A DNA stretch of 63,325 nt from Girardia tigrina (Eukaryota): the NCBI GenBank assembly GCA_001938485.1, contig MQRK01221508.1, positions 88,166 to 151,490 of the forward strand. The letters are read 5' to 3'. The position numbers and the translations under genes were made by a program. The notes beneath the pieces are model-generated. The model ran no database searches and was not told the DNA's origin. It saw nothing but the letters and a program-made list of their open reading frames with translations. Below are positions 16,101 to 56,900 of the stretch, one piece after another; position 1 is the stretch's first letter, and each line of letters begins with the position of its first letter.

Positions 16101-19100
16101 AAATAAATAACAAGTATTTTTTTGATTCCTTTAATTCAGCATCAGTTACAAGATCGAAATCACCAAAAAAATGTGTTCGCAACTTATTTTTGTCAATAAT
16201 GTACAATAGAGAAGCAACTGTATTCTAGGTTTACCTTTTAGCCTCAGTTGTAGAAGAATAATGTTCTTGTATTATATTCATACGAATATCCTCTGGGGTT
16301 ATATCTTTGATTAAATCATGCAAATCGTTCAGAGTATTCGACTGGCGAGACGACAACATCCATTTACGGTTGAAAATCAAAGGCTGTTTTAAAGTGTAAA
16401 CAATTTCTAAATTAAAAATGAGAATAAGTTGTTACTGAATTATTGTTTTATTTATAAACAATTTACTTTGATTAATTTGAAAGACAGCTGTAGCAATACT
16501 ATATGAACTGTATCCATACTTATTTTGAGCAATAATTCTAGCTATAAATTGTACTCCTTCTCCAAGGTCTTCCAATAAATAGCGATTGTCAACGCTGTAT
16601 CCAATAGTTTTCCAAGAGCTTGTGGAATCTAGATTCATAATAAAATGTTTTATCAACAGTTAGACTTCAAGTTATAAGAGCAGAGTACCAAACGCAACTA
16701 ATAGCATAAATACTTGAGGAGTCTTTAACAAAATTGGTAATAATTTTTTAAATATACGAATGGTTAGTACTAAGTTTCCAGATGCAGTATAATTTCAAAT
16801 TATCTATTAAGCATTACAACTTTTATAAATATTCATCCTTGCTGTCTATATAAAGTTGTATCCTTATAAATTAGTTAGTCCACACTGAATCGGGTAACCC
16901 TTTCATCAATTTTCTTTAAGCCTTGGCCGTCTTTTCTGGTCACGACGTAGAAAATCATCTGTCTAATGAGTTTTTCATTTGAACACACAAAGAAGTCGCA
17001 GGAGGAGACGTACTGACTGAAATATTGGATTAGTTCCTCGTTGTGCTATCTGGCCAGAAAACATATCACAACATACTACATTCTTCCAATCCAAGTCCTT
17101 AATTGATATCTGGAAATGGTCCAAGGCAACTACATATGCTACATTAGTCACACCTGGAAACTTATTTCTTTTCTCTCATATATACACATTTAACTATTTA
17201 TTATAAATATTACTCCCAAGTAAATTATTTTCAAAATTATATTTTTTAAAAGTAAAAAGATTATAACGGCAAAAAAAACAATAGCTAAAAAATATTTATT
17301 GGATTAATCTGGGTGGACAGGAAGCCGTGTCTCCAGAATATTTTGGAAAGAAAAGAATTATTTTTCATTGTGCATGTCGGTTGACAAGTGCTTTTCATTT
17401 TATTGAACAAAATATTCATCGGAAATCCATCTCGTTTACGCAATTCAAATGTGGCGATATCCCAACCGAGAAAATGATGACACGCATCTTTATTTGCCGG
17501 GAAAACTTCGAGTGATAGCGCACTCTTTATCGATGTTATAATGAATTCAGACATCAATTTTAAATTGGCTGAACAAATGACTTTCAGTTGTTCATCTTTA
17601 TATTGGCCTTTAACTTCTTGACCAAATTTTTCCCACATTTTTATTATTTTTGTCAATTTATTTTTTTTAAATCGCCGTAAAATTATTTATAAATTTCGAT
17701 TAACTGAACTCTTCTTTTTATTTAAATTGAATTAAGAGAACTCCCTTTTGAAAAACTTTTATTTGACATTAAAAACATTAAAATGACTTTTCAAAAAATT
17801 GATTTAAAAAATTGAAATTGTTATTATAATTCACAAAAATAACTTTTTACACACACATAACAAACAGACCAATCATTTTACATATCATACACAATACATA
17901 TCACATATTAACACACATTCATGCAGACAATTCATTCATACAACACAAGCATACTTACATGCAGAGAAAATCTGTTTATTGCAATTAAAATAAAAATAAA
18001 ATGAATGAGGCTCACAATTTGATTCAAATATCTCTTTTCGAATTTTTTGAGAACCCATGAATACATTTAAAGATTCGGGATTGGAATTTTTGAAATATGC
18101 CAAAATAAATTGTGTAACTCATTATTAAATCAGTATTTGGATCATTTTGCTAATTTAATTTTTATTTTAATATATTTTATTTAAATTATTTAATTTATTT
18201 AATTTTTTTTCTTTAATTGGTTAATTAAAAATATGATTTATTTAATTATTTTAATTTCTGAAACTGGCAAAAATGTTCGGTCAAATTGGCAATTCTCCGC
18301 TCCACTGGGTTAATATTAGGTTGGTCGAAAAATAATGGCGGTTTTTGAGCTTTATACTTTGTTTATCTACTTTGATATGTATATAAGTTTAAATGAATTA
18401 GTGTTAGATATTATTTGAAATCTTATGTCTAGCTGTATATTCCTAGAGCCATTATTAACATATTGCTGTTATTTTTTAGAATATTTACGGTGCTAAATTA
18501 ATAATGGACAAAATTAAAATTCGAGCAATTTTCTTGTACGAATTTAAACTGGGTCGTAAAGCAGCNNNNNNNNNNNNNNNNNNNNNNNNNNNNNNNNNNN
18601 NNNNNNNNNNNNNNNAGCAATTTTCTTGTACGAATTTAAACTGGGTCGTAAAGCAGCAGAAACGGCTCGCAATATCAATAAAGCGTTTGGCAAGGGAACA
18701 GTTTCTGAGCGCACAGTGCAACGATGGTTCCGAAGATTTTCCGATGGAGATGAAAACCTTGAAGATGAAGAAGGTCGTGGTCGTCCAGTTGCTGTGAACA
18801 ACGACAATTTGAGGACAATGGTGGAAACAGATCCCCGTGCAACAACCAGAGAACTTGCAGATGGGTTGGGCATTAGTCATTCAACAGTCCTGGATCATTT
18901 AAAACAACTTGGAAAAATCAAGAAACTTGATAAATGGGTTCCACATGATTTGAATGAAAGTCAAAAGAACCAACGCTATGAAATTTGTTCTGCCAATCAT
19001 CTTCGCCATAAAAACGATCCATTTCTTGATCGTATTGTTACCTGTGATGAGAAATGGATTCTGTATGATAACCGACGTCGATCTGCACAGTGATTGGACA

Positions 19101-20039
19101 AAGATGAAGTACCGAAACACTTTCCAAAACCGAAACTAACATCCCGTAAGGTTATGGTGACAGTTTGGTGGTGTGATGCTGGAATCATCCACTATAGTTT
19201 CTTTAATCCAGGTAAAACAATCACAGCGGAGAGGTACTGTCATGAAATTGATGAAATGCATAAAAAATTGAAAACCCTTTGTCCGGGATTGGTCAATCGA
19301 AAAAGTCCCATCCTTCTTCATGATAAAGCTAGACCTCATATTTCAAATGTGACTCTTCAAAAGCTTACTGAGTTTGGCTATGAAACCCTGCTTCATCCAC
19401 CATATTCACCAGACCTCTCACCAACAGACTTCTTCCTTTTCAGGCATTTGTACAACTTCTTATGTGAAAAAAATTTTTAAAAACCAAAATGATGCTCAAA
19501 ATGCCTTCCAAGAATTCGTCGTTTCGAGAACCGATGCATTTTATGCTAATGGAATAAAACAACTTGTTTCTCGTTGGCAAAAATGTATTGATGCGAACGG
19601 TTCATACTTTGATTAATAAACTTTTGTTTCTGTGAATTTACACGTCTTTGAAGTTTGTGTCCCAAAACCGCCATTATTTTTCGACCAACCTAATATAATC
19701 AGTAAACAAAAATCAAATTATTATACATATTTATACATATTATATATAAATGAAAAATCCAACATGTCTAAATACAAAAAACCGAAGATACAGAGAAAAA
19801 GCCCAAAACAGTTAGTAGTATCTATAATATTGTTAACCCTGTGATAGAGCATCATATTTGTCAAAAATCAAAATGAAAATAATTTAATATTTATCTTAGA
19901 AATTTAAAGGTATTTTTACAATATATTTTTTACAATATATTTAATTTATAATTTTACAATATATTTTACAATATATATATATATATATANNNNNNNNNNN
20001 NNNNNNNNNNNNNNNNNNNNNNNNNNNNNNNNNNNNNNN

Positions 20040-29000: not shown

Positions 29001-32000
29001 CAAAATTTTTACTATGACAACAATTCACATATTTAAACAAATTTTTTGTTAATTCAATTATCTCACCAAAAATTAATTTATTAAATTTTTTTTTATTCAG
29101 TTTTTAAAATTTAGCAAATAGCTCCAGCATACTGGCCATTGTAAGATGCTTTTCTGACGGCATATCCGGTTCTAAAATAAATGCTTCTCGTAGCTTATCA
29201 TTATGTATGCCATGGACTACAATTGCTTTAATAATTTCATCCATTGCTTCTGGCCTCTTAAAAATTTCGGTAACTAATGATCTTACCCGTAACTCGAAAC
29301 ATTGATATCGTTCGTCGTGTCGTTGAGAAACGTTGCTCAGCTCCTTGACTTTGTCCACGACACTCCTCGGTTTGGTAAATGTTGATAGAAACCATCTACT
29401 CACTTCTTCGTACGACAAATCTTTCCGATTAGCACTAAATTCGTTCCATAACAGACGGCAGTCCCCTCGTAGAAGCATGTCGAAGGCAAATAACATTTCC
29501 ATTTGGTTGAATAACGCAAACTCCTTTGTTTCGTCCAGCCATTTCTCTGCGTTATCCGCTTTACCATCAAAAAATGATACCTTCGGTGTCATTTTTTGAG
29601 CAGCAAGTGGTAATTTTGAAAATAATTTTCTTCTCTCTTCCGCTCTGCTCACTGCGCAAATCACCGGTTTGGTTTCGAGATTTGATTGGCTGTGGTCGCC
29701 AGTAAGAACACAATCGAAATCCATCAGAATAAATATATTTAAAATCTAACACAAATAATCAAATATTAAAACAACAGCAATAATTGAATATTAAAAGAAC
29801 ATTCAATTATCCAACTAGTATATTTAACAAGATGGTTGGTAATCCTCCTATTGACCAAGTATATATTGAACTTTTCACCTAAATTGGATATGTATTTGTA
29901 CAAGTTTAAATCATGCAACTGTTTATTTTTGTGTCTTTTGTACTATGCATATGTTTTTCATGAAAATAATTTAATGTTTACTTGAATGTTTTGAAGTATC
30001 ATTAATCAATGAAGTCTGTAAAGCATTTTCTACAAAATAAATTTATAACTATACGAAACAAAGTTACACAGAGTTCTAACCACTCAATGAAGATGTGTAT
30101 TAGTTACTAGTCCCATGTTACTTGTTGTATGTGATTTATGATTTCAGAAAGTTCTATATATGTATATATACACGTATCATATTCACTTATGACTTCTCAA
30201 TGTTTGTATGAACCCTTTTTTGATAAACATATTTGAAGAAGACTATCAAGATACATCCATAAAATATATCAAGAAGAGAAATTTTGATTAAACCGACGAT
30301 CACCACCATCAAAAAAAAGATCAAGCTTAAATATGTCGAAAGAATACAAATAAATCATAAAGAAAAATTTATCAAAATATATTCGAATCAAAAAAAATAA
30401 AAGCAGAAAAATCTGATGGAAATTTCTGATTATATCTTGGTAATAAAAAATAACTGGATAATTAATTTTATAATTCTAATCTCCCACAGAAATATGGGAT
30501 ATTTGAATTCAAAAATTAAAAAAAATCATTAATAAAATTAATTATCAAATACTGATTCATTTTTATAATGAATGAATTCAGTAATTTTCGACGACCACTA
30601 TTGCAATTTTTGATGATGAAACTATGATATTTTTCTTCAAACATATATGACAATCGTTACTACAAGTCGAAACCAATTATTAAAGATCTCAACTGAATCG
30701 TTTCTCGCTATACTACCTGAATAATTATAAAAAAGAATATCAATTCTGAGATGAACTACACCTTTAATTTACGATTTGAAAGTAACAGTTTATTATTTTA
30801 TAGCAGTTGTAATTGTTCTCTGTGAACTATTTTTCGGTTATTGTTTATAGATAATACAGTTATTTTGAACATTTATTTATTTTGCTACTACTGATCTCAG
30901 CGAACTAGATTGTTGGATTAGCTCAGTAATTTACACATCATATAGAATAACGCACTTATCCATCCATTCGATCCGATAAGTGAGTTATTTTGTATACTTA
31001 CCATTCTATATTCAATGTAGTTGTGAATTTCTTCTTGTAGTGACCACAATTTATTAATTTAATTATTATCAATTTAATTATTAATTTAATTTTAACAATC
31101 AAAATTTAATAACAAAAAAATGTGTAAAAAATACAAAATTTAATTTTTAAAAACAATGGAGTGAATCGATTACATTAAAACAGAAAAAAATATTTTTAAA
31201 TAATTTAAAAATAAATTTTTCGTGTTGGAATGCATTTTCAATTGCTCATTATTATGTTTTCAACAAAAATCTGATTTTTTTTTATTTTACGATTAAAAAT
31301 CCGACGTTAAATAATCCCATGAATGATTACTCGTCAAATCCGATCGGTTACCACGAGAACTACATCCAAAAACCGGACATTTACAATCAATTCTACAATC
31401 AAGCCCATTTTTTAGCGCCAGGAATCAACGTCTACGACTCAAAAATATATTCGATTCCCGAGTCCGATCCGATTTTGCAATCGTCTAATATCAGCAACAA
31501 TCACATCAACTCGACCAGGTTACTCAACCAGTCGCTCTCGACCGGTTTCAATCTGTCTCAATTGGATCAATTAGCGACCAACAACAACGGTAACACATCA
31601 CCAATCATATCAACAGCACCAACGGCGAGGAATTCGATTTCCCCGTGCTATCAACGCATCTCAGCTCGTTCGCCCTAAAATCGAATTGACGTCGTTCCGG
31701 AGCTGTCGGGCAAGATTGCGACCCCCACTATATCCCAACGCCATCCGAAACCGGTAGGTTATTATTATTTTTGAACAGTTTCTCGCGAAATAAACTCCAG
31801 GGTCACTGGTCGGTGATTGGACCCGTTGAATCCACAGCGAAGCGGCACAGCGTCCCCACAACACTTCTTTTAAATAATCTTTGAATGACTTATTTATCCA
31901 CTCAACCAATATATCTTCAAGCATAGGAAGAAGGACTTTTATCCCGCCATCCTCTATTCTAGATGTTCTTCCTTGCATGGCTGAATCTCTAAATTTAATT

Positions 32001-34725: not shown

Positions 34726-37700
34726 CAAATAATAGTACTTACTTTTCGTAAACCAAAACTAAATATTGATCTGCCATGGAAATTGCATCGAATATTTCCA
34801 CAATATTTCTATTATTTATATTTTGAATGCACAGGAATTCCGAATTTCCAACTCCTATGTTATTAACATCGAAAAACTTTCCTATAAATTCACATTCTGT
34901 TGATTTTTCAATTAATATTTGGCAAGTACTGTAGGATCCTCTGAAATAAAATGTTTGATAATCTTGTTATTGTTTTTTACATCATCAGAATTGAAAATCA
35001 CAATACAAAACAAACGAAAACCAACTTGGTCAACTTCCTCATTGTATAATATCTATCATTGATATCTCCTTCATTGATCTGTACAGATTTTCGTTCTGGT
35101 TGAGCTAGAAAAACGTTAATGGTATTGAAAGGAAGGTTTTACGAATAGTAAATTTACCATCAATTCTCAAATTAAACTTGATTTCAGCGAACCCCGCCGC
35201 ATTTTCAGCTCTTATGCTATATTCTCCACTGTCCGACAAAATACATTTAGAAATCAGTAAGGAATATATTCCAGTTTCTTTATTTTCGGAAATAACGGTT
35301 CGATAACTGGAAAACATTTTTTTCCAATTTCGTCTCCAAACAACTTCCGGTGGCGGTTGTGCATCTATTTGAATGGAAATAAACAAATTCTCATGAAGGT
35401 TTAAACTTCTGTTTGGAAGACAATTCAAAAATGTTGGTGCATCTATAAAATTAACGTTCAGAAAAACAAATGTTTGAGTTATCAATATAAACCTGATTTA
35501 ATAAGAATAAAAGATTGTATGACCTCTTGAGAATTGTTTAGAGCACAATATTCTCCAAAATCTTCAGCTTCGAGATTTTTAACAACGAAATATATACCAT
35601 AGGATTCAGCAGAGTAAATTTTGTACTTTTCTAAAATATTTTTAAAAATGAAAAATAATAAAACTGTATTTCTTTAAGATTCTTTACCATTTATAGACAT
35701 TTAAAAAACATTAAATAAATTTGGGATAAAATAATATAAAATATTACTCTTTAAGTTCTAATTGCAAGTTATATCAATCTTTGAATTCATAATAACAGAA
35801 TTAAATAATTTTTTTACAAACAAATTTCTACTTTCTATGAAAAATCAATTTGTCGATATTTATTTTATTAATAATCTTTTATTCTTAAATCCTGATTAAT
35901 TTTTTAAAACTCAAAATTAAAAATGTTTAATTAATCGGATTTTAATTTAAACTAATATATTCTACCATAATATTAGGTTGTTCGATATGAAACGGGTCAA
36001 AATTAAAGTAAAATGTAAATCGATTTTTTTTAAATAATAACATTTTATTTTTAATCAAAATATCCCCCCATGTTGTCAACACANNNNNNNNNNNNNNNNN
36101 NNNNNNNNNNNNNNNNNNNNNNNNNNNNNNNNNNNNNNNNNNNNNNNNNNNNNNNNNNNNNNNNNNNNNNNNNNNNNNNNNNNNNNNNNNNNNNNNNNNN
36201 NNNNNNNNNNNNNNNNNNNNNNNNNNNNNNNNNNNNNNNNNNNNNNNNNNNNNNNNNNNNNNNNNNNNNNNNNNNNNNNNNNNNNNNNNNNNNNNNNNNN
36301 NNNNNNNNNNNNNNNNNNNNNNNNNNNNNNNNNNNNNNNNNNNNNNNNNNNNNNNNNNNNNNNNNNNNNNNNNNNNNNNNNNNNNNNNNNNNNNNNNNNN
36401 NNNNNNNNNNNNNNNNNNNNNNNNNNNNNNNNNNNNNNNNNNNNNNNNNNNNNNNNNNNNNNNNNNNNNNNNNNNNNNNNNNNNNNNNNNNNNNNNNNNN
36501 NNNNNNNNNNNNNNNNNNNNNNNNNNNNNNNNNNNNNNNNNNNNNNNNNNNNNNNNNNNNNNNNNNNNNNNNNNNNNNNNNNNNNNNNNNNNNNNNNNNN
36601 NNNNNNNNNNNNNNNNNNNNNNNNNNNNNNNNNNNNNNNNNNNNNNNNNNNNNNNNNNNNNNNNNNNNNNNNNNNNNNNNNNNNNNNNNNNNNNNNNNNN
36701 NNNNNNNNNNNNNNNNNNNNNNNNNNNNNNNNNNNNNNNNNNNNNNNNNNNNNNNNNNNNNNNNNNNNNNNNNNNNNNNNNNNNNNNNNNNNNNNNNNNN
36801 NNNNNNNNNNNNNNNNNNNNNNNNNNNNNNNNNNNNNNNNNNNNNNNNNNNNNNNNNNNNNNNNNNNNNNNNNNNNNNNNNNNNNNNNNNNNNNNNNNNN
36901 NNNNNNNNNNNNNNNNNNNNNNNNNNNNNNNNNNNNNNNNNNNNNNNNNNNNNNNNNNNNNNNNNNNNNNNNNNNNNNNNNNNNNNNNNNNNNNNNNNNN
37001 NNNNNNNNNNNNNNNNNNNNNNNNNNATCTGTCAAGAAATACCTTATTTATTTTCATACGATAGTTCAAAGTTAAGTTATACGCGATTGAAATGTAAGGT
37101 GTGAAGTTTGACCCGTTTCATATCGAACAACCTAATATTTAGTTTACAACTATAAAAAATATTTAATAAATTATAATCTTTTAATTTCAAATTATTCAAA
37201 TCAATTAAAATATTAAAAATTATTTAAAAGCTCAAAATTATTATTTTTAAAAATTATATATTTCATAAATTATAATTTATTTCAATTGTATTAAGAAAAT
37301 TTATTTCCGAATTTAATTTAAAATATTCGTATACAAAATTTATATTTTAAAATTTAAGCGTTTTTTAAGTTTTTAAATTATTTAAATTATTATTAGTGAA
37401 ATGAATATTAACTAATTCATAACAGCAGGGGTCTCCAAACTTTTAATGCATTTTGGATGGAGCGTTTGAAGATAGTCCTGCGGGTCACATATATAAATTA
37501 TGGTATTAAAAACGCATAATCAGTGAATACACAGATAAATTATACGTTTATTAATAATATGAACATATAAAATTATAATTGTAATTACATTATAGTGCAA
37601 ATTTTGATAATATATTCAAAACAATAACATTAAATTCCATTTAATAAATATTTCTAAAAAATTGGACGATTAACAGGAGTTCTAACTAGTGAGAATAGTG

Positions 37701-38941: not shown

Positions 38942-41900
38942 CAATTTAATATAAAAATAACAATTTAATAAAAAAAAATCATATATTAATAAAATATTAT
39001 TAATAAAATATAAACATAAAATAAAAAAAACAATATTAATGTGTCGAATTAAAAAATTTGTATCGAATTGTCTTGTGTCGAATTGTCTGGCTACCTTACT
39101 TAACACAGCATACTTTAATTAAAACATATCTGTGATAATATTTCAGTTTAATAAAATAAATATTCGCTTCTTCTTCAGAAAATATGTTTTAACGTTTTTT
39201 ACCGCATTTGTTTTAACATTTGGCTATTTTGTAATACTTAATTTTTGATTCAACATATTTTCTGACAGAAGTACAAAAAATTGTTTCGGGATTTTAAGAA
39301 AACATGAAAAATGAAATTTAAAAATGAATACTAAAATGAATTTTATTTTGATTTATTCAATCAACAGCCTACTTGCTCTGCTTTTTGTAATTTGAGATTT
39401 TATGTTGGAGTTATAGAGATATAAGTTAGTAATATTTTTTGCACTCAGTCAATCTTCATTATTATTTCTATTCGTCTCTTCTCCTGCCCAAAGGCAATCT
39501 TTCAACTAAGATGGTGAAGAGGTACTGATCATACAGCTTACAAGTAGATGAACGATTTCTAATTTTACAGAAAAAAATGTACACAATGAAGAGATGAACA
39601 GGAGACCACGATAAATTGGTTTAGAAAATAAAATTTAAAGCAAAATAAATAGAAAGCAATGAATGAACAACTTGCGAATGCCTTAAACGTCAGCTTACAA
39701 ACAATACATAGCCCGCATTTTTGATTTTGTGCCCACTATTGGATGTGACCACATTTTTAATTTTTAGATAAATGTTTTAATTCGGTCATATTTTAGTCAT
39801 TTTCCTTGCAGTGCCTTTTAAATCTTTTGAAAGTTTGCTTCTTTCTTTCAAAACACAAACTCTAATCATATTATACCTATTTGCGATTTAAGACCAGAAT
39901 TAGGGTCCATAAATTTTGAAGGTCCGAGTCAAAAATAAGTTGTTAAATTGAAAAAAATATATTCAAATTTTTTCTAGGAAAAATTAATCATAGTTACACA
40001 CTCCTCAATAATAATTGTAAATTATACGGCTTCTGTTTGATTATTATTCACTTACAAAATTTATGATTTGGCTACCAGAAGTCGAATATGCATTACATTT
40101 TCAGAAAATTTATAAAGACACGTATGTAGGCCCATAAGGGTTTATTCATGAAATGTAATAGAAATAAAATATTTCAGTTTTGTATTAAAATGGTGAATAT
40201 AATCACCTTGATATGTAAATATAACACTCATTACCATTAATGTTAGGAATATTTGTACAAAGATTAGAACGTTTATTTAGTTTATAAATGTAATTCAAGT
40301 AAGCCTATACTGAATGTTTTCCAAAATTCTGGAAATCGAAAACCAATGAGAGTAATGTAAATAAAAAATTTTAGGATAAATATTTATTTAACTTTATGAT
40401 TTCCATCTCAATTCCTCAACGAACAGATTCACAAATTATTTCCACTTTTCCTTCAGAGATACATTAAGTTGTTTGAACTTTATGGTAAGGACGGGGTGTT
40501 AAATTTAAAAAACTAATATCGTTATATTTATTATTAATTCAATCAAATAAAAGTTAATCTTACCAGGATATTTCATTTTATTTTCAATGAACATGTTCTT
40601 TTGATAATCTACTTCAAACGATTAAAAAATATAAATAAATTACTTAGATATTACCATGATTTCGGATACGTTTAGTAATCATTGATGGTTTACCCCTTCC
40701 AAAATCTGTAACTGGCACAATTCTTAATTGATAATTCATATTCGGATCCAATTCAGATATATCAACGCGATTTTTTTTAATATTCTGCTTGAGAACAATC
40801 CAGTCATCGTTGTTTGCGTCTGCCATACTCATCTCACGGTATTGAACATCAACTGAGAATGGAGTATAAAGATCTGAAGACATTCTCGGAGGTGTCCATG
40901 ATAATATAGACTCCATCTTCCCATTCGTTCCAGGAATCACGATATCCTCCATATTCAAACGAACAAATGAGAAATCCGGTATGGCTGAATGTTTAATAAT
41001 TATAAAACAAATCAAAACAAAATTTTCACTTAATGATAAAAATAACTTTTACTTTATTACCTTCTTTTAAACTTAAAGGTTGTCCAAATAAATGTAGTTA
41101 ACGTAAATCATAAAATATATATTTCTCTAACTACGAATTTTCAATTTATGTGTTCCGGAATGGAATAATAAAAAATAATTAATATTAAAGAATAAAATTT
41201 TAAATTAATTGTAAATTATTGTAAAAATTTGTATTAAAAAATTACAAACTTTTTCGTGTAAATGTAGAAAGTTCTTTTTAATGTTTATCGAAATAGTTGC
41301 TTAGCAACTTTTGTTTAATAATAAGAAAAAAATTTGAATATTCAGATTCTATTTTGAAGTGCGACTTTTTGTTTTGGTGGTATAAATTCTGAATTGACAA
41401 TTTCGACAAAATTATTTTGAGGAAAATTATTGCATTTTAAATTCTGTTACTACGTGTTGCTGAATATTAGTTTCGGTAATTCGAGTATGGTGATAAACAT
41501 CAAATTCAATCTTCTACTACAAGATCTGATTTATTCTTTCGACAAGAACATCGATTTCTACAACAATAATCTCCAGCATTTCAATTTAGATGGAATTTTC
41601 GGAATGAGCATAGAAAATTACGCTAACCTAAAAACAAACCTAATTTAAATGTTGGAGCGGAAATTAGCCGATTTGACCAAACATTTTTACCAGTTTCAGG
41701 AAAATATAAATAAAATATATAATTAAATTAATAAATTAAAATAATTAAATAAATTTATCAAATAAAATAAATTAAATAAATAATTAAATATAAAACAATA
41801 AATAAAATTAAAAATTGGCTCTCTTTCTTTCTTTTATTAATTATTTTCCAAATTTATCAGTCACATTTACAATAGACTTAATTTGTATTTTCTTTTCATT

Positions 41901-44900
41901 GTCTTTTATGAATTCTCTTTGTTGGATTTGCAGATGAGAGTGAAAATAATTTTACTGAGCAAGAAGAGGCAACATTATATAAGTTAAAACACATTATCAA
42001 TCGATAATGTGAATATAATATAATTAATTGAATGGTGAGCCTCATCTTTGCATGTTAATCTTTCTGCTTTGTAATTACATGATGGTGTGTGTGTCTGGAT
42101 TGCGTGTGTGTGAAAATGTTATATGTATATAAGTGAGTGTGAATGCACGTGTGTTTATGTTATGTCCAATAGGACAAAAATGTAAAATAAATAAATCTAA
42201 TTTGTTGGTAAATGTATGTAAGGTATGCGAGTGTGTGTGTGTAGCCAGAGAATTGTTGTTATGAGCATTTGTCAGAAATTTGAATGAAAGTTGGAAAAAA
42301 AAGTTGAATTTTGAGTTGTATTAAAAATTTAAAAGAACAAATAAAATATTTCAAATTGGAAAATAATTTTTTGTCTTCATTTTCAATTCCACGAAAACTT
42401 AAAAATGATCTTGCTGACAAATTTAAAAATAAACGATGCCATGGTGTTAGCGGCTTCAATGCAAGAAGATGAAAAGATTAAAAGTTTAAATAATCATCAA
42501 AATCAGGTGAAACCATTGTTTAAGAAAATGACTAATTTATATTATTCAATTTCTTCCATAGAAAGTGATCTATATATGTTTCATGATTTAATTGATAGAG
42601 AAATTTGTTGTATCATCTTAACTAAAAAGGAATTTTCTAAAAAAGTGGCATTTGCATTTTTGATTGTTATTATAGGTGAATTTCATAATAAATATGGCAG
42701 TAAATTTGAAATTGCATCGAGACCGTATGCATTTATTGAGTTCGATAAAGATATTCAAAATTCACAAAATAAATATACAGTCACCCGAACACCAATAACT
42801 TTTACTCAAATTAATTCTAATTTAAACGTTCAAAGAATTATAGTGAAAAACATTAACGATGTAATTCAACGAGGAGAATCTCTGAGTGATTTAGATGATG
42901 AATCGACAGACAGTTCTTCTCTTTCCAAAACATGGAGACACGGCTTCCTGTCCAAATGTGTTGAATGAATAAACATTTAAAATCAATTAAAATTTTATAA
43001 ATTATTTGAATTAAAATATTAATTAACTGTCAATAATAATTAAAATTAAATATAAAAAAAATATTCTGTTGAGTACTGTCATTATAAAATATTCAATCAA
43101 ATTCCTTAGTTAAATAAGTTTAAAATAAATAATTTTATTTCATTAAAATGTCTTACTAATTTGAGGATGTAATTTGACTATTTGTGAAGGTATTCCTGAA
43201 CCAAATTGATTTGAGGCAATTATTCTGAACATATATTCTTGGCTCGGATCAGGACTTTCCCAATGGAAGGAGTTTTCCTCTAAACCGGATATCAATTCTA
43301 TCCAATTCAATCGTTTAATGTCTTTTGAACGGTTTTTTATATTATCATTAGAACTAAGAACAACGTATTGAACTTCGTATTGCATGTCTATCAAAAGTGC
43401 AGACGGTATACAAATTTCATTACTTTCCGGCGAGAATCCCGACTGCAAGTCAGGCTCTGTCCATTCTATAACAAAATCCGTAACTGAATCCGAGATGAGT
43501 TTCGGTTTCATCAAAGACATGTCTGGAACAAGAAGATCTGAACCGAAAATGATTTAATGAGCCTTTTATGAAGTACTATAAAAATTATATATAATGTAAG
43601 CGCTAGTTCATATTACAATCATATTTAAAATAAATTACTAATCTGTCTAAAATATACATATTTGTATCTAATTTCTATTCAATTATAATTGCGATTTTCC
43701 CATAATAAACGGTAATCTTGTAAAAATAAAGGTCCAATGTCATATATAAACGTTATCGTCATTTTAAATAATATAAATATATTTTAAATATAATTATAAT
43801 AAGTAACAACGAATTTCAGTAAAATATTACATTAAAGAAATAAAGGTTTTGGGAAATTAATAAAGACTTGTTTCATAGATAATTGTACTTTTCATATGTT
43901 AATAAAATACAACTTTTGGTTTCATCCTTAACTTAAAGAATATTTGATTTTTTTTATTTTTCTTTTTCTCATAATCTTAATCGTATTAAAAAGAAATACT
44001 AAGTTTAGACTAAGATTACCAAAACAAAATTAACGGGATGATTGGGACACAGTTGAATCTGACCTTTATTTTGAGTTTGGAATTGATGTATTTTATTGAC
44101 AATAAAAAGAAGATTAATTTGATTGTTCATTTTCAAAATGATCGATTTTGTCAAATAGAACACATGAAATATGCGATTTATTTCAATTGTTCTTCAAGAC
44201 TCCAGTCTACAAGGACAAAAAATTGGTCATTTAAGCAAAATTTTCAATTCAATTTTCCCGTTGACCATTAAAGAGGAGAGGGAGGAAATCTCGCAAAATG
44301 TAACTTATTTTTCCCGTGGAGGGGGCCCCCTATAGGTTGGTGGGGCTCATTTTTGTCATCCAAAAACTGAAAAGAACACTAAATGTGTTACATAAGCATT
44401 CTTTCAGTTTACTTAAGGATTTTATTTTAAAAAATCACCAATTTTTCGAAATTTATTTACAATCTTTAAATAAATGATTTAATAATATTTAAAATTATTT
44501 TGTGCTTGCAAAAGTTCTTATGCTTTTTCAATGTGTTTTGTATCAATTCAAGAGTTTTTTCTGTCCATATCTTCGTCTATTATAGAAGGTACCTGTTTCT
44601 TTGAAATGGTCTAGAAATACGGAGACTTTTACACAATTAACACTAAAAAATTTACCCACATCATATATATTGATAATTCTCTAATTTCATCCGAATACCA
44701 AACTGCTGGTATGAAACTTTTATTATTAAAATATTTAACAAGATAAATAATTTCAATTATTTATATGCTATTCAATATAAAAATTTCAGAAATAAACATT
44801 GCGAGGAGTTGGTTTAAATTTGCATTTCGCCTGTGAGGAATATTTTGAATGTTTGATGTTTTGTGTTTGAATGTGTATGTTGATTTGGAAATGTGTCTCT

Positions 44901-50900: not shown

Positions 50901-53900
50901 TGGCTAAAAGATTTGTAGCAAACAGACAAAGTGAATGAAGTCTAATAGTAGTAAACATCAGGCTCATTCAGATCGTAATCATTTAGTCAGTAAATTTAAA
51001 CGACAAACAGCGAAATTTCTAATCTTCAAATCAACTATACCAGAATCACTTAAACCCTTTGAATATCGAACTTTTTTGATAAAAATTGTCTAGAATGCAA
51101 AATAAATCTCAATAAATCTCATATAATATTCAAGTTCATGTTTATTCATTTTATGGGAACCATATGCAATTAATCTTTCTCTTCCACACATGTCTTTCCT
51201 CCTATTGTATCAAAACTTGCGTCTGTATCGAGTGTAAAGTCTTTAGAAAAAACCGGGTATGACAAAATTGGTGTCTTAATCATTTTTTCTTTTAATTTTT
51301 GAAAAGCTGCATCACATTCTTCAGTTCAAATCAGTTTTTTATCCTTTCTCTTACCACATAAGCCTTTTCAAACCTTTGCATATCTAGCGTAATCCTTTAT
51401 GAATTTCCTGTAGTAATTCGTCAAACCTAAAAAGCATCTTAAATATTTGATACATGACGGGTTTTGAAATTTTCTAATCGCATCAATCTTTATTTTATCT
51501 ATCTCAATACCTTTTTTACTTATAACAAATCCTAAAAATTAATTTTTTTCTACTAGGAATTGACATTTCTCTGGATTTATTCTCAATTCTTTAATTTTCT
51601 CAAATACTTTATGTATTCTTTGAAGATGTTCTTCTTTATCTTTTGCAACAATCAAAATATCATCTAAATATACGACTGCTTCTTTCAAATTCAAATCTCA
51701 CAGAACTTTCACCACTAATTCTTGAAAATTTACTGGAGCCGCTGCAATTCCAAAAGGCATTCTCTTAAAACAATATTGAACATTCTTTGTTGAAACGCTG
51801 TTTTAATCTTTGATTCTTCTTCAACCTGATAGTATGCATTTCCTAGATCGAATGTACTAAAATATTTTGCTCCATTCAACGTGTTTAACATGTCATCCAT
51901 ATTTGGCATAGAAAATGCCGGTCTTACCGTATTTTTATTCAACTGTCGAAAATCGACACATACTCGGATGTCTTTTTTCTCTTTTTTCCATACACACACC
52001 AGAGGAAAGTTCCATGGAGAACTACACTTTTCAATTATACAGTTTTCTTTAAAATTTCTAATAACATCATTTAGTTTCTCTTCAAAATGTTGTGGTAGTC
52101 AATAAGGCTTCACTAAGACTTATTCTTCACGAGTTTCCATTTTGTGTTTCGTTAAGGAAATTTTCCCAACATCCAACTTGTCAGCCATGAATATTGATTT
52201 ATATTCTGTTAAGTCTCATTAGTTCGTTGTCAACTTTGGTATTATATATTTCTTTAATTCTCTTTAGTCTGTCATCATCTGTTGGACGATCTCTAATCAT
52301 CCATATATCACCTGAATCTATAGTTTCCTTCTTTAGTTTTATTCCAAATTTGTCCAAAAAGTCAACTCCTGCTATCATTTCTGGGTTGAGTTCTTTGACT
52401 ACATAAAACTCTATAATTTTTTGTACTCCTTCAATTATTACTTTTAATTTAACAATTCCAAAATGTATAAGGCCTGAGTCATTTGCACAATGAATGGGTT
52501 TACTCGTTTTCTTTATCTTAACATCTTTCATACTTTTAAGTATATTTGATTTAATAACATTTACTTTCGCACTGATATCCAAAAGACATTCAGCATTCAT
52601 ATTATTGTTATTAAATTCAATGCTTGACCTTTGATATTTTCAACATTTCTTCCTGTTTCAACTTTTTCGATTTTTTTATCTACTTATCAAAACAGTTTGT
52701 GTCAAATTCTTCCTTCTAACAATCTAATTCACAAACTTCGAGAGGGATATCTTCCAACGCACAATCACACATACAGTCATACATACCATTAAATACACAA
52801 TCACATACACAAACATTTTTACTTTTTAGTGAAGCATACTGATCACCTCTCCTTGTGATCGTGCATCCTCGTTTCCCTGGTCTTTATCGTATACTTGTCT
52901 ATTATATGTAAACATTCTTTGCCTCGAGTCTCATTTATTTGATTGTGTTTCTTCGTATTCGTTGTAATCGTCGCCATCATGCATTTTTGCAATATGATAT
53001 CTTTGATTTTGATGCCTCTATTGATGTCGTGGGTTATTTGCTCTAGTCCATTCATTTTTTCTGGCGTATTGGTCTCTTTCTCTAAATCTATGCTTGTTCA
53101 TGTAGCATTGCTTCCTGATATGGCCATTTCTTTAGCAAAAAGAACACTTTATATTCGGACAGTTTCTTCTTATGTGTCCTTCTTCGTGCATGCCCAGCAT
53201 TTTACAACTTTTGAATAGTTATTTCTCAGTTTTTATTCATTATTTCTTTGACTAGTGTACCTATTTTCGAAATTTCTTTGTTGGGTTCGTTCTTTATAGT
53301 GTGGTTTACGTTAGCCTACCGTTTTCCATTCATTATGTTTACCTACTATTTTGTATGCGTTTCTTCTTTTTCCATTTTTCAATATTCTATTTTCATGTCA
53401 AGACCACTCAGAAATTTTATCCATGTTTGAAACTGTGGTGTAATAGGGTTTTTCGTAGTCATCATAAAAGTGATAGCTTTATGATCCGTTCGTAACAAAA
53501 ATCTTTTCCCATACAAAAAATGTTTAAAATGTTGAGTGAAATAATAAATTGCAAGCAGTTCTTTCCTTGTTATGCAATATCAGCATAACGTTCGAAATTT
53601 TTTTATGAAGTCACCTAATTTCGACTCGGTTCCATCGAATTTTTCGTGTCCTATAATGTTCATTGTCACATGAGCAGTGGTCGCCATATTAACAACATCA
53701 AAATGAGTTTTTAAACATTTATTATTATCAAAAACGCCTTCACTATTTAACACTTTTTTTGATCAATATATTTCTGAATTCAATCTAATTATTTTCAATA
53801 AATTAAAATCTTTTAATAAAAATTATTAATTATAAAGAATCTAATTCGTTAAAATTAAATCTAAACATTTTTAAAAAAGTACATATTAAATTAATATATT

Positions 53901-56900
53901 ACTCCCTCCGTCCGGAAATATGGTATATATTTCAACAGAAATCGTAGATTATCGTGATTATAAAAATAAATTGGCAACTGTCATTACATTGCTATAGTAA
54001 ATACTCATGACAATATAACCTTAAATATTTTACGTAAGCAATATCATTCTTAATTAAACACTTAACGCTCAAACATCTGTGTTTCTTGAGACAAATAAAA
54101 TTAATACCGCTGCAAGACGAGTATAGAAAATTCTGAAGAAAATTTTTTAAACTTAGAAAGAAGGGATTCCAAATATAAACAATTAACCAAAGAACAACGT
54201 CAAGGTATATTAGAAAAATTATTACAGCAGATTAAGGAGAATAAGCTAAAACACGATGCAATCAATGAAGTTGCTACTGCGTTTCGAGTTTCCAGGCCAA
54301 CCGTTAGTAGAATTTGGCTTGAAGCACAAACTCAATACAGAGAAGATAAAATATCTGCCTATGTTTCTTCAAAAAAGAAAGAAAGATGCGGAAGAAAACC
54401 TTAGGACTATTCAAACAATTTAGCGCAAATAAAGAATACACCATTAAATCGACGCGGAACGCTTCGCAGTCTTTCCTTCGCAATTGGTATTCCAAAATCA
54501 ACTTTGTTTGATATATTCAAGACGGGAAAGTATATCAAGAGAATATTTTCTACAGTTAAACCAACTTTAACAGATAAAAATAAAATGGACAGATTGGAGT
54601 TTGCTTGTCTAAAGTAAGTCTTACTATTAATGGAGATTTGCTTTTTGATGATTGGTACGATTACTTTCACATTGATGAAAAGTGGTTTTATCTAACTAAA
54701 GTTAAGCACTCTTATTACTTAATGTTAAACGAAGAAGAACCGGAGAGAAACTACAAAAGTAAAAGATTTATTACGAAAGTAATGTTCATGGCTGCAGTTG
54801 CTCGACCACGGTATGATGCACATCGAAAGCATTATTTTGATGGAAAAATTGGAATATGGCCATTTGTTTATCAAGAACCAGCTCAAAGAAATTCTAAGAA
54901 CAGGGCTAAAGGGACAATAATAACAAAAAATGTGGAATCTGTTACAGCAGTAAATGGCAAAATTATGATCATGGAAAATGTAATTCCCGCAATTAAATCT
55001 AAATTTCCGCCAGCATACAAAAAGAAAACAATTTACGGACAACAAGACAATTCGAAACCCCATTTTTCTGATAATGATGCAGATATTGTCACTCTTGGTT
55101 CTGCTGATGACTGGAATATTAAATTTAAGGCGCAACCAGCAAATAGTCCCGTAGATATATAATCCTATGTTCTCGATTTAAATGTTCTCGATTTAGGTTT
55201 TTTCAACTCCATACAATCGCTGCAACTTGAAGCTTCGCCAAACACAATTGATGAATTAATAAATTGTGTTTAAGATGCATTTCATCAATTAGAAGTAAAT
55301 ACTCTCGATAACGTTTTTACAACATTACAAGCATGTATGGAGTTAATTATGTTAGCAGGTGGAGGAAATTGCTATAAAATACCTCATTTATGTAAAGAAA
55401 AACTTCGTCGCGAAGGTGGACTGCTAGAAATATATGTATGTTCCAAAGAAGCGTACAATAAAGCCAAATCAAATTTCGAGTGAAAAAAATCATTCTTATT
55501 TAATTTAAATGTTTCAAATAAAGTTAATATAATATACTTGTCATGTACATTTTTTGATTTATTTTTTCGCAAATGTATACCATATTTCCGGACAACAAAA
55601 ATCGCTAAAATGTATACCATATTTCCGGAAGGAGGGAGTAAAATTTTGATTTACATTAAAAATTAAATAATACATTCAAAAGTTATTTTAAATCTTTTTA
55701 CTTTAATATTAAATTAAATTATTTTAAATTAGTAATAATCAAAGAAAATACCAATCATCCATCTGTGTAGGAGAGGCACAATCCGAATAAACACACAACA
55801 TGCACAATATCAACCCACAATTCAAAACATTCCTCACAGTGAGTAATAATATTTTAAATCTTAAATAGCAATCATGACAAATAGTGTTATTGAATAAATT
55901 TTGTAACTAAAATCACATCTCTTCATCAAAATATTTTACCGTTTATGATAACATCAGCTTCTGTCGTATCATATCCGAGAAAGTTTGTAGCTAAACAACA
56001 ATATCGACCTGAATCTGTGACCGCACCATCGAGGATAGTAAGATAATAATTGGGAAAATCATCCAGAATTTTTATTCTTTTGCTAAAGATTTTTGGATCT
56101 AAAGTTTCTCCATCTTTCGTCCTATTTTAATTATTAATTAATGTCCAATAATTATGAAAGAAATTAAACATTGCATATTGTGAGATATAATTAATAACTT
56201 TATGATAATTTATAAATAAATTGGGCCTTGTCTTTTTTTCACAATTGTTGAAGAAAGACTTTTTAAAAAACCAAATATAGTGGAATTTTAATTCGTGATA
56301 TTTCAAGATGTTGTTTTATAAAAATTTATAAAAAAATAATAATTCAGTGTGAAAAATACTTTATTGAAAATCTAATTAAACTCGGTGGAAATGATATTAT
56401 TCGCCAAATAGATAAGTCAATGTTTAGATACAAAATAAGTATCACTTTGGCCAAGTCAACAGATTTTAAGTGGGTTTTTGGAATTTTTGTCATCATGAAT
56501 TTACCGGCCAATTAGTATGTTGAACATGTTGAAAATCGTAGAAGAGAAACTTTGTTACCAAAAATTGAACGAGTTTGTAGAGATGGAAGTATTAACTGGA
56601 GTGCTGATTATCAGGAAATTAATAGGCTTAATTTAACACATCAAACTGTAAATCACAGTATGTTTTTTGTTGATTTTTAATAAATTATTAAAAAAAGGTT
56701 TGTAGGGAAAAAAAGACAAAGTCCAATAAACTAACTAAATTAAACTATAAATAATAATGGTTCAAAAATAATTTCAATAAAACTCTATTTAGAATTTACA
56801 ATTTAGATAAATTAAAATATGTAATTAAATATGAAATATTTAAATTTTGTTTGAATAATCGAAAAAACGAGTATTTAATTATCGGATTGTTATAATTTTA

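Follow-up and report, generated by a model that had tools for sequence, protein, structure and literature searches.

Captured SEC22 mRNA in the long terminal repeat of a BEL/Pao retrotransposon of Girardia tigrina: probably one of several exchangeable leaders placed before ubiquitin and Gag-Pol

How does an uninterrupted reading frame for an anchorless SEC22 protein come to lie within a transposable element, and is it kept for the SNARE that it resembles or for some other reason? The question is raised by an open reading frame (ORF) of 187 codons at positions 42405-42968 (+ strand) of a 63,325-nucleotide stretch of the Girardia tigrina genome (contig MQRK01221508.1, positions 88,166 to 151,490), which was analysed as a whole and is referred to as the window. 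A first-pass annotation, made from the letters alone, had described this ORF as a transposon-borne, intronless SEC22 gene retaining the longin domain and most of the R-SNARE motif with its zero-layer residues and lacking the membrane anchor. Pfam matches (Longin, residues 38-115, E 3e-15; Synaptobrevin, residues 135-178, E 7e-6) and the alignment to the host gene agree with this description: the frame is unbroken, the zero-layer motif QRGE is kept and the transmembrane helix is missing.

The ORF occupies the 3′ half of a solo long terminal repeat (LTR) of 1,302 bp (41653-42954, + strand), which begins with TG at 41653, ends with CA at 42954 and is flanked on either side by the 5-bp target-site duplication AATGT (left copy at 41648-41652, + strand). 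The sense strand of the LTR follows from other copies, in which a primer site lies 3′ of the LTR end and a polypurine tract 5′ of the LTR start. Ahead of the start codon, 19 nt of the host SEC22b 5′ UTR (42386-42404, + strand), recognized by their match to the host gene, have travelled with it. The adjoining segment (42405-42930, + strand) corresponds to captured spliced SEC22b mRNA, comprising host codons 1-178 (the longin domain and most of the R-SNARE motif) with three in-frame one-codon deletions, and the cargo is 87% identical to the spliced host coding sequence over 557 nt. Directly past SSLSK (host codon 178), the match to the host ends and the frame enters the LTR 3′ end (42931-42954, + strand), which is common to all subfamilies and is followed in longer copies by a spacer of 4-5 nt and the tRNA-Ile primer site. 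The switch after SSLSK into element-terminal sequence had thus been placed correctly, but the last four residues and the stop codon do not belong to the element: they are supplied by the right target duplication (42955-42959) and the host flank (together 42955-42968, + strand), and the stop is there by chance. The LTR is about 96% identical to its nearest relatives among those fetched. An intact cargo frame was found in 12 of the 36 full-length cargo copies examined, which were best hits, a choice favouring intact frames; the intact frame in the window, which the first-pass annotation had taken as a hint at selection or recent capture, is thus not exceptional. Selection on the frame does emerge from the family as a whole, in which inherited stops are absent (see below). 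The window copy itself is a solo LTR remnant in an intron and most likely without effect of its own.

This intron belongs to a very large Ig/FN3/protein-kinase gene (12542-49575, − strand), which we take to be obscurin/twitchin-like and whose exons extend across much of the window; on one side of the intron lies an open frame with an FN3 exon (40644-41048, − strand) and across it an exon whose open frame has a weak FN3 match (E 0.002; 43143-43553, − strand). A second solo LTR of the same BEL/Pao family, 991 bp long and flanked by a CCCAG duplication (17314-18304, − strand), contains a different cargo ORF (17285-17686) in the identical slot and frame; neither this ORF nor the cargo ORF of locus L088 gave a convincing Pfam match. 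Both solo LTRs are situated within the span of the Ig/FN3/kinase gene, one in sense and one in antisense orientation, the SEC22-bearing one being antisense and intronic. Also present in the window is an element whose inverted ends enclose an assembly gap (35969-37139); 112 nt of its end recur without a difference in an insertion within the family copy L096. Positions 18313-19696, 54584-55162, 29104-29745 and 51730-52639 are occupied by a mariner-like transposon whose inverted ends measure 33 bp, by a further fragment resembling a transposase, and by gag, protease and reverse transcriptase (RT) fragments derived from other LTR elements.

The origin of the cargo was traced in the AT-rich genome assembly of 1.43 Gb. 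The intact parent gene (L112, SEC22b) is divided by three GT-AG introns into four exons and encodes a membrane helix at the C-terminus, and its C-terminal residues are the same as in the Macrostomum protein. All three introns are precisely absent from the window cargo, which together with the LTR and its target duplication bears out the transposon-borne, intronless character assigned to it. The cargo lacks the last 38 host residues, the cut lying inside exon 4, and capture by splicing from the host gene was rejected because the junction falls within this exon. The genome also contains two more SEC22 paralogs with introns, L114 and L115 (G000 C237353 and C226871), both of which carry a stop. 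At the 104 sites that separate L112 from L114, the window copy reads as the first gene, then as the second paralog, then again as the first, with a patch (42686-42821, limits approximate, + strand) that matches L114 and not L112. Among 47 copies, left after 9 of 56 had been dropped as duplicate insertions, the breakpoints of this mosaic vary and some copies contain sequence of the first gene only, and by this comparison mRNAs of the host paralogs renewed the cargo on more than one occasion. Since L114 gave sequence to the LTR cargo, it was transcribed at that time. As judged from these alignments, the SEC22 cargo is a copy of a spliced host mRNA patched from a paralog. With the parent identified as L112, the check for element-borne copies that the first-pass annotation had called for gave many and not one: SEC22-like matches number at least 150 (the best 150 scored of 954 candidates in a protein search). 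In subfamilies with other cargos, a short stub resembling SEC22 exon 4 is found beside the LTR end, consistent with SEC22 being the oldest layer of the slot.

The 22-nt LTR 3′ end has 581 exact occurrences in the genome, and 51 LTR ends are followed by a primer site whose sequence is the complement of the 3′ terminus of tRNA-Ile(AAT) genes in this assembly; ARAGORN detected no tRNA in four loci with partial copies, and full tRNA-Ile(AAT) genes were found at others. Among 60 fetched LTRs with both ends, which are not a random sample, 25 are followed by the primer site, 5 are associated with the purine tract and 30 are solo LTRs; a 5-bp target duplication with at most one mismatch flanks 25 of these 30 and is perfect in 18. 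A polypurine tract precedes the 3′ LTRs. The copy L090 possesses twin LTRs, 98.5-99.3% identical, with the same cargo and a target duplication, and as both LTRs contain the cargo, the cargo belongs to the LTR. Between two LTR starts, the copy L096 has an internal part of about 6.5 kb encoding DUF1759, CCCH fingers, RT, Peptidase_A17, integrase and DUF5641, and the Pfam domains of L096 and L090 are DUF1759, DUF1758, RVT_1, Peptidase_A17 (E 7e-41), rve and DUF5641 (E 4e-22). At L187, Gag, protease (PR) and RT are all in one frame, and the gag-pol order is that of BEL/Pao elements (PR-RT-RNaseH-IN). By domain content and LTR features, the element is placed among the BEL/Pao retrotransposons; a Burro/gypsy identity was excluded by domain content, and a DNA transposon by the primer site, purine tract and twin LTRs. 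Cys-His zinc knuckles are expected in BEL/Pao Gag; the Gag of L090 and L096 shows two CCCH fingers and no CCHC match. These fingers (within L090 2950-4326) are possibly another captured host domain. Three copies (L189, L192 and L090) have internal deletions, with Gag running into a long coiled-coil repeat and pol absent, and are likely non-autonomous derivatives. After an LTR on the minus strand of L107, a sister BEL family was noticed whose far more diverged ubiquitin-like domain also has a Cys-Gly-Gly end before Gag. 

Where a primer site is present, the frame of the cargo continues through the LTR end, the tRNA-Ile primer site, short tandem repeats, a Cys/Asn-rich stretch, a middle fragment of Hsp90 and ubiquitin into Gag. 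Single copies stay in frame over different parts of this path: L095 for 275 aa, beginning in SEC22 and reaching the Cys-rich part; L081 for 470 aa (no N), between the LTR and the Gag N-terminus with ubiquitin included; L189 for 915 aa (6 X), between the cargo ATG and the Gag N-terminus, again with ubiquitin and with coiled coil behind; and L187 for 1,178 aa (52 X), beginning in the leader and taking in Gag, protease and RT. The alternative raised by the first-pass annotation, that the frame passes the LTR end where internal sequence follows, is thereby borne out, and of its suggestion of a new C-terminus the continuing frame has stood; a new membrane anchor beyond the LTR end is absent, and the repeats and the Cys/Asn-rich stretch are found there instead, as parts of a leader that ends in ubiquitin and is followed by Gag. 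The junctions between unrelated cargos preserve one frame. In none of the fetched copies does an unbroken frame extend from the cargo ATG to the integrase: SEC22-bearing copies with a primer site are all broken or cut short, those with Gag (L095, L097, L099, L165, L171 and L180) are broken, and L189 is internally deleted and without pol.

From one subfamily to another, the slot filled by SEC22 in the window is taken by the 5′ end of a different host mRNA. At least seven cargo types were identified (SEC22, 14-3-3, RPB10, LSm, Sec1, Usp and a piece that we take to be kinase-like), each in tens or hundreds of copies; the 14-3-3, RPB10, LSm, Sec1 and Usp pieces were recognized by Pfam in the same LTR slot of other subfamilies, and in some subfamilies the slot also holds nested chimeras and pieces without assignment. 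The bias towards 5′ ends is pronounced. RPB10 matches end by position 41 of the 58-position profile in 62 of 66 cases, 137 of the 150 14-3-3 matches listed (LTR ends were checked for part of them) start at position 1-4 and end by position 150 of 223, that is, contain the first half only, and the LSm, Sec1 and Usp cargos match near the profile starts. In the RPB10 and 14-3-3 cargos the host 5′ UTR exon is present and spliced across its intron, and the host start is included in all three cargos for which the parent was located. A 10-nt match marks the junction between the RPB10 piece and the start of SEC22. In successful subfamilies, SEC22 is reduced to a stub of 30 residues or lost.

Leucine-73 and glycine-76 of ubiquitin and the following serine are invariant in 48 of 48 copies and glycine-75 is present in 45, with residue 74 being cysteine in 34 and arginine in 11 of the 48. 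Ubiquitin in frame and ending in Gly-Gly directly before the following protein is the feature known from pestiviruses, and host deubiquitinases are predicted, by analogy, to cut the leader off Gag. Of 47 element copies, 35 have the ubiquitin methionine and 12 lack it, one subfamily being without it, and no methionine is conserved near the Gag start, the first one of Gag lying at varying positions from 11 to 59. Among the 150 Gag relatives listed, 15 have alignments that come within 31 residues of the Gag start. Five of these distant BEL relatives (27-56% identical) have a hydrophobic-x-hydrophobic-x-GG motif no more than two residues from the Gag start, against a background of 12 in 1,615 sequence windows, a sixth shows a ubiquitin-like domain that lacks GG, and seven, including a Mya arenaria protein, begin at a methionine of their own 10-22 residues upstream. 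With a GG motif or an own methionine in the relatives and no fixed Gag methionine here, the ubiquitin with its Gly-Gly end sits where the start codon of other BEL elements lies. In one relative (P0021, 30% identity) an Hsp90-like piece and ubiquitin both precede Gag, and the leader layout is by this token old.

The copy number of the family is sufficient to separate selection on the frame from selection on the protein, which is rarely possible for captured genes. In 46 SEC22 copies (one partial copy was also left out), changes present in neither host paralog were classed by the number of copies carrying them. Private changes comprise 166 replacements, 38 silent changes and 18 stops (14.5 expected), with an omega of 1.11. 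Changes in at least three copies comprise 79 replacements and 25 silent changes (omega 0.81, CI 0.51-1.32, p 0.33) and no stop, against 6.8 expected (P 0.0009). Stops are likewise absent from this class in 14-3-3 (3.2 expected), the Cys/Asn-rich stretch (4.1) and Hsp90 (4.4); in the four leader parts pooled there is none against 18.5 expected (P 9e-9), while private stops occur at the expected rate. Of six SEC22 indels in at least three copies, five keep the frame (in 37, 41, 32, 7 and 3 copies); one 8-nt frameshift deletion is present in 4 copies. An omega near neutral together with the absence of inherited stops indicates that the frame is selected and the SNARE is not. According to the first-pass annotation, a single copy with dN/dS near 1 and no transcripts would have been a neutral retrocopy; the ratio is indeed near neutral, yet the sequence is multi-copy and free of inherited stops.

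For the internal part, 48 copies remained after 15 of 63 rows had been dropped as duplicate insertions. Omega for changes in at least three copies was 1.06 in the Cys/Asn-rich stretch, 0.58 in Hsp90, 0.29 in ubiquitin and 0.33 in codons 1-120 of Gag; the leader parts contained no stop of this class. In a wider set (54 rows, 16 of 70 dropped) the Hsp90 value was 0.66 (p 0.11); this set includes the host UBA52 gene (L205), which inflates the private silent count of ubiquitin, for which the 48-copy figure is preferred. Two stops in ubiquitin and one in Gag are carried by three copies, so the shared class includes some recurrent mutation or duplicate rows. The low ubiquitin omega stems mostly from a split between two subfamilies, could reflect recapture from different host genes and was therefore rejected as proof of function. 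RPB10 (2 of 31 rows dropped as duplicates) has only two replacement changes and one silent change in the shared class, too few for a selection test. The 14-3-3 cargo (56 copies, 1 of 57 rows dropped) has an omega of 0.30 with the host exon as reference and of 0.40 when column majorities are used (p 6e-5 to 1e-3).

Taken together, we consider it probable that a BEL/Pao LTR captured the 5′ part of a host mRNA in the form of the SEC22 piece, which acts there as an exchangeable, ubiquitin-insulated N-terminal leader of Gag-Pol and likely provides no more than a start codon with an open frame behind it. During minus-strand synthesis, reverse transcriptase, primed by tRNA-Ile and moving towards the 5′ end of the RNA, would switch at short matches onto a co-packaged host mRNA; since the 3′ part of the LTR is copied first, a switch at this point would capture the host mRNA through its 5′ end, and every capture would bring its own start codon. 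Only in-frame captures would still yield Gag-Pol. Cleavage after Gly-Gly by host deubiquitinases would then free Gag, so that the leader sequence would be largely irrelevant and could drift. The 14-3-3 omega of 0.3-0.4 speaks against a leader of pure junk, as a leader whose sequence does not matter does not predict such a value unless refreshing from host alleles explains it. Further points against the proposal are that no fetched copy is unbroken between cargo and integrase, that four SEC22 copies share the 8-nt frameshift, that a few stops in ubiquitin and Gag recur in three copies, and that cysteine prevails at ubiquitin residue 74. A bolder version of this proposal is possible but on the whole unlikely: ubiquitin before Gag would have made the LTR a free-running gene-sampling slot, and the element, without a start codon of its own, would serially steal the 5′ ends of housekeeping mRNAs, spread each to tens or hundreds of loci and profit by small-RNA camouflage or by released halves of host proteins, 14-3-3 above all.

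Among the alternatives, the cargo might be selected as RNA, the slot turning over for the sake of an efficient host 5′ UTR or of host-like sequence that small-RNA defence cannot silence free of cost. This reading is compatible with the frame and ubiquitin findings and adds a benefit of capture; the derivation of the cargos from housekeeping genes with their 5′ UTRs kept, the repeated refreshing of SEC22 from paralog mRNAs and the sweep of at least seven cargo types to tens or hundreds of copies are consistent with it. We nevertheless regard it as doubtful, because abundant mRNAs would be co-packaged most often and would give the same pattern without any benefit, and the SEC22 cargo has drifted to the 87% identity given above.

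That the released leader works as a protein, a truncated SEC22 or a 14-3-3 dimerisation half hindering a host pathway for the element, is very unlikely. The predicted cleavage would free the leader as a separate protein, the zero-layer arginine is kept in 38 of 45 SEC22 copies and leucine-163 in 46 of 46, the omega interval of SEC22 extends down to 0.51, and the 14-3-3 value is low. The SEC22 omega, however, does not differ from neutral, the radical changes Q39P, Y63D, G68E and I173S are each found in 28-35 of 46 copies, a one-codon deletion near codon 144 inside the SNARE helix, by which the helix register is broken, is present in 32 copies, and successful subfamilies manage with a SEC22 stub or none. 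As to 14-3-3, 6 of 23 shared silent changes are near-fixed relative to the host copy and one block resembles a second host allele; the low omega thus looks like partly a matter of host allele differences, which are not removable here. The soluble, dominant-negative SNARE modulating secretion that had been proposed for the window ORF is not supported: against it stand the same near-neutral omega, near-fixed changes and helix deletion, and the replacement of SEC22 by unrelated genes elsewhere in the family.

Finally, the cargo might be neutral and untranslated, with Gag beginning at the ubiquitin methionine or at an internal site and the open frame upstream simply left over from a recent capture. 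This reading would be in line with the methionine present in 35 of 47 copies and with the choice of copies as best protein hits, which favours open frames, but it is highly improbable and already contradicted by the stop counts, as the same choice leaves private stops at the expected rate (18 against 14.5) while inherited ones are absent, even from the non-coding-looking repeats and the Cys/Asn-rich part, junctions of unrelated cargos keep one frame, and one subfamily has no ubiquitin methionine at all.

The exchangeable leader remains the preferred explanation, and it is the architecture of the family, rather than any SNARE role of the window copy, that deserves attention. Capture of genes by LTR elements is usually viewed as fatal to the element and hence a dead end; in the present case it appears to be built into a living family whose gag-pol start has been borrowed and replaced repeatedly, a tolerance that a cleavable ubiquitin would explain. 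The LTRs are a layered record of the host mRNAs that entered particles, and in practical terms hundreds of truncated look-alikes of SEC22, 14-3-3, RPB10, Hsp90 and ubiquitin will confuse annotation, read mapping and the design of RNAi experiments. No description of the combination of LTR cargo and ubiquitin-Gag was found in the literature searched, mostly open papers without supplements or Repbase.

Compared with known systems, the element shares with the BEL/Pao families, whose survey includes the planarian Flow families (de la Chaux and Wagner 2011, PMC3118150), the TG..CA LTRs, 5-bp duplication, primer site, polypurine tract and the order DUF1759-DUF1758-RT-Peptidase_A17-integrase-DUF5641. 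It differs from the elements described in the text of that survey, in the main part of which the word ubiquitin is absent, by a frame that begins inside the LTR in captured host sequence, by the Hsp90 fragment and ubiquitin before Gag and by two CCCH fingers without CCHC. From SEC22b, the ER-Golgi longin R-SNARE, the cargo retains the longin domain and zero-layer arginine; unlike SEC22b, it is without a complete SNARE helix and C-terminal anchor, carries I173S and is under no clear purifying selection. Template-switch capture is known from LTR-mediated retroposition (Tan et al. 2016, PMC5131818, citing maize Bs1), which, as outlined there, joins partial spliced host mRNAs to LTR elements at short matches and gives multi-gene chimeras in repeated copying rounds; intron loss and short matches are found here as well. 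In that account the retrocopies displace some of the internal ORF sequence and leave a non-autonomous element, whereas the present cargo lies inside the LTR, is duplicated at both ends and stands in frame ahead of gag-pol, which is retained in part of the copies. Cytopathic pestiviruses contain captured cellular ubiquitin in frame in their polyprotein with unrelated host sequence in front, and host ubiquitin hydrolases cut behind it and create the next N-terminus (PMC8310069, PMC13517609). These are RNA viruses without reverse transcription and with sporadic insertions, whereas ubiquitin is here a fixed family trait, also seen in Gag relatives of 27-56% identity, and cleavage would follow by analogy. 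The giant gypsy-type Burro elements of planarians (Arkhipova and Yushenova 2019, PMC6431247) are likewise LTR elements of flatworms with host-derived domains, including a SUMO-like one, fused in the polyprotein; they exceed 30 kb, have env and carry Gag at the N-terminus, whereas the present family is BEL/Pao, has an internal part of only about 6.5 kb (L096), gave no env match and places its extra parts before Gag.
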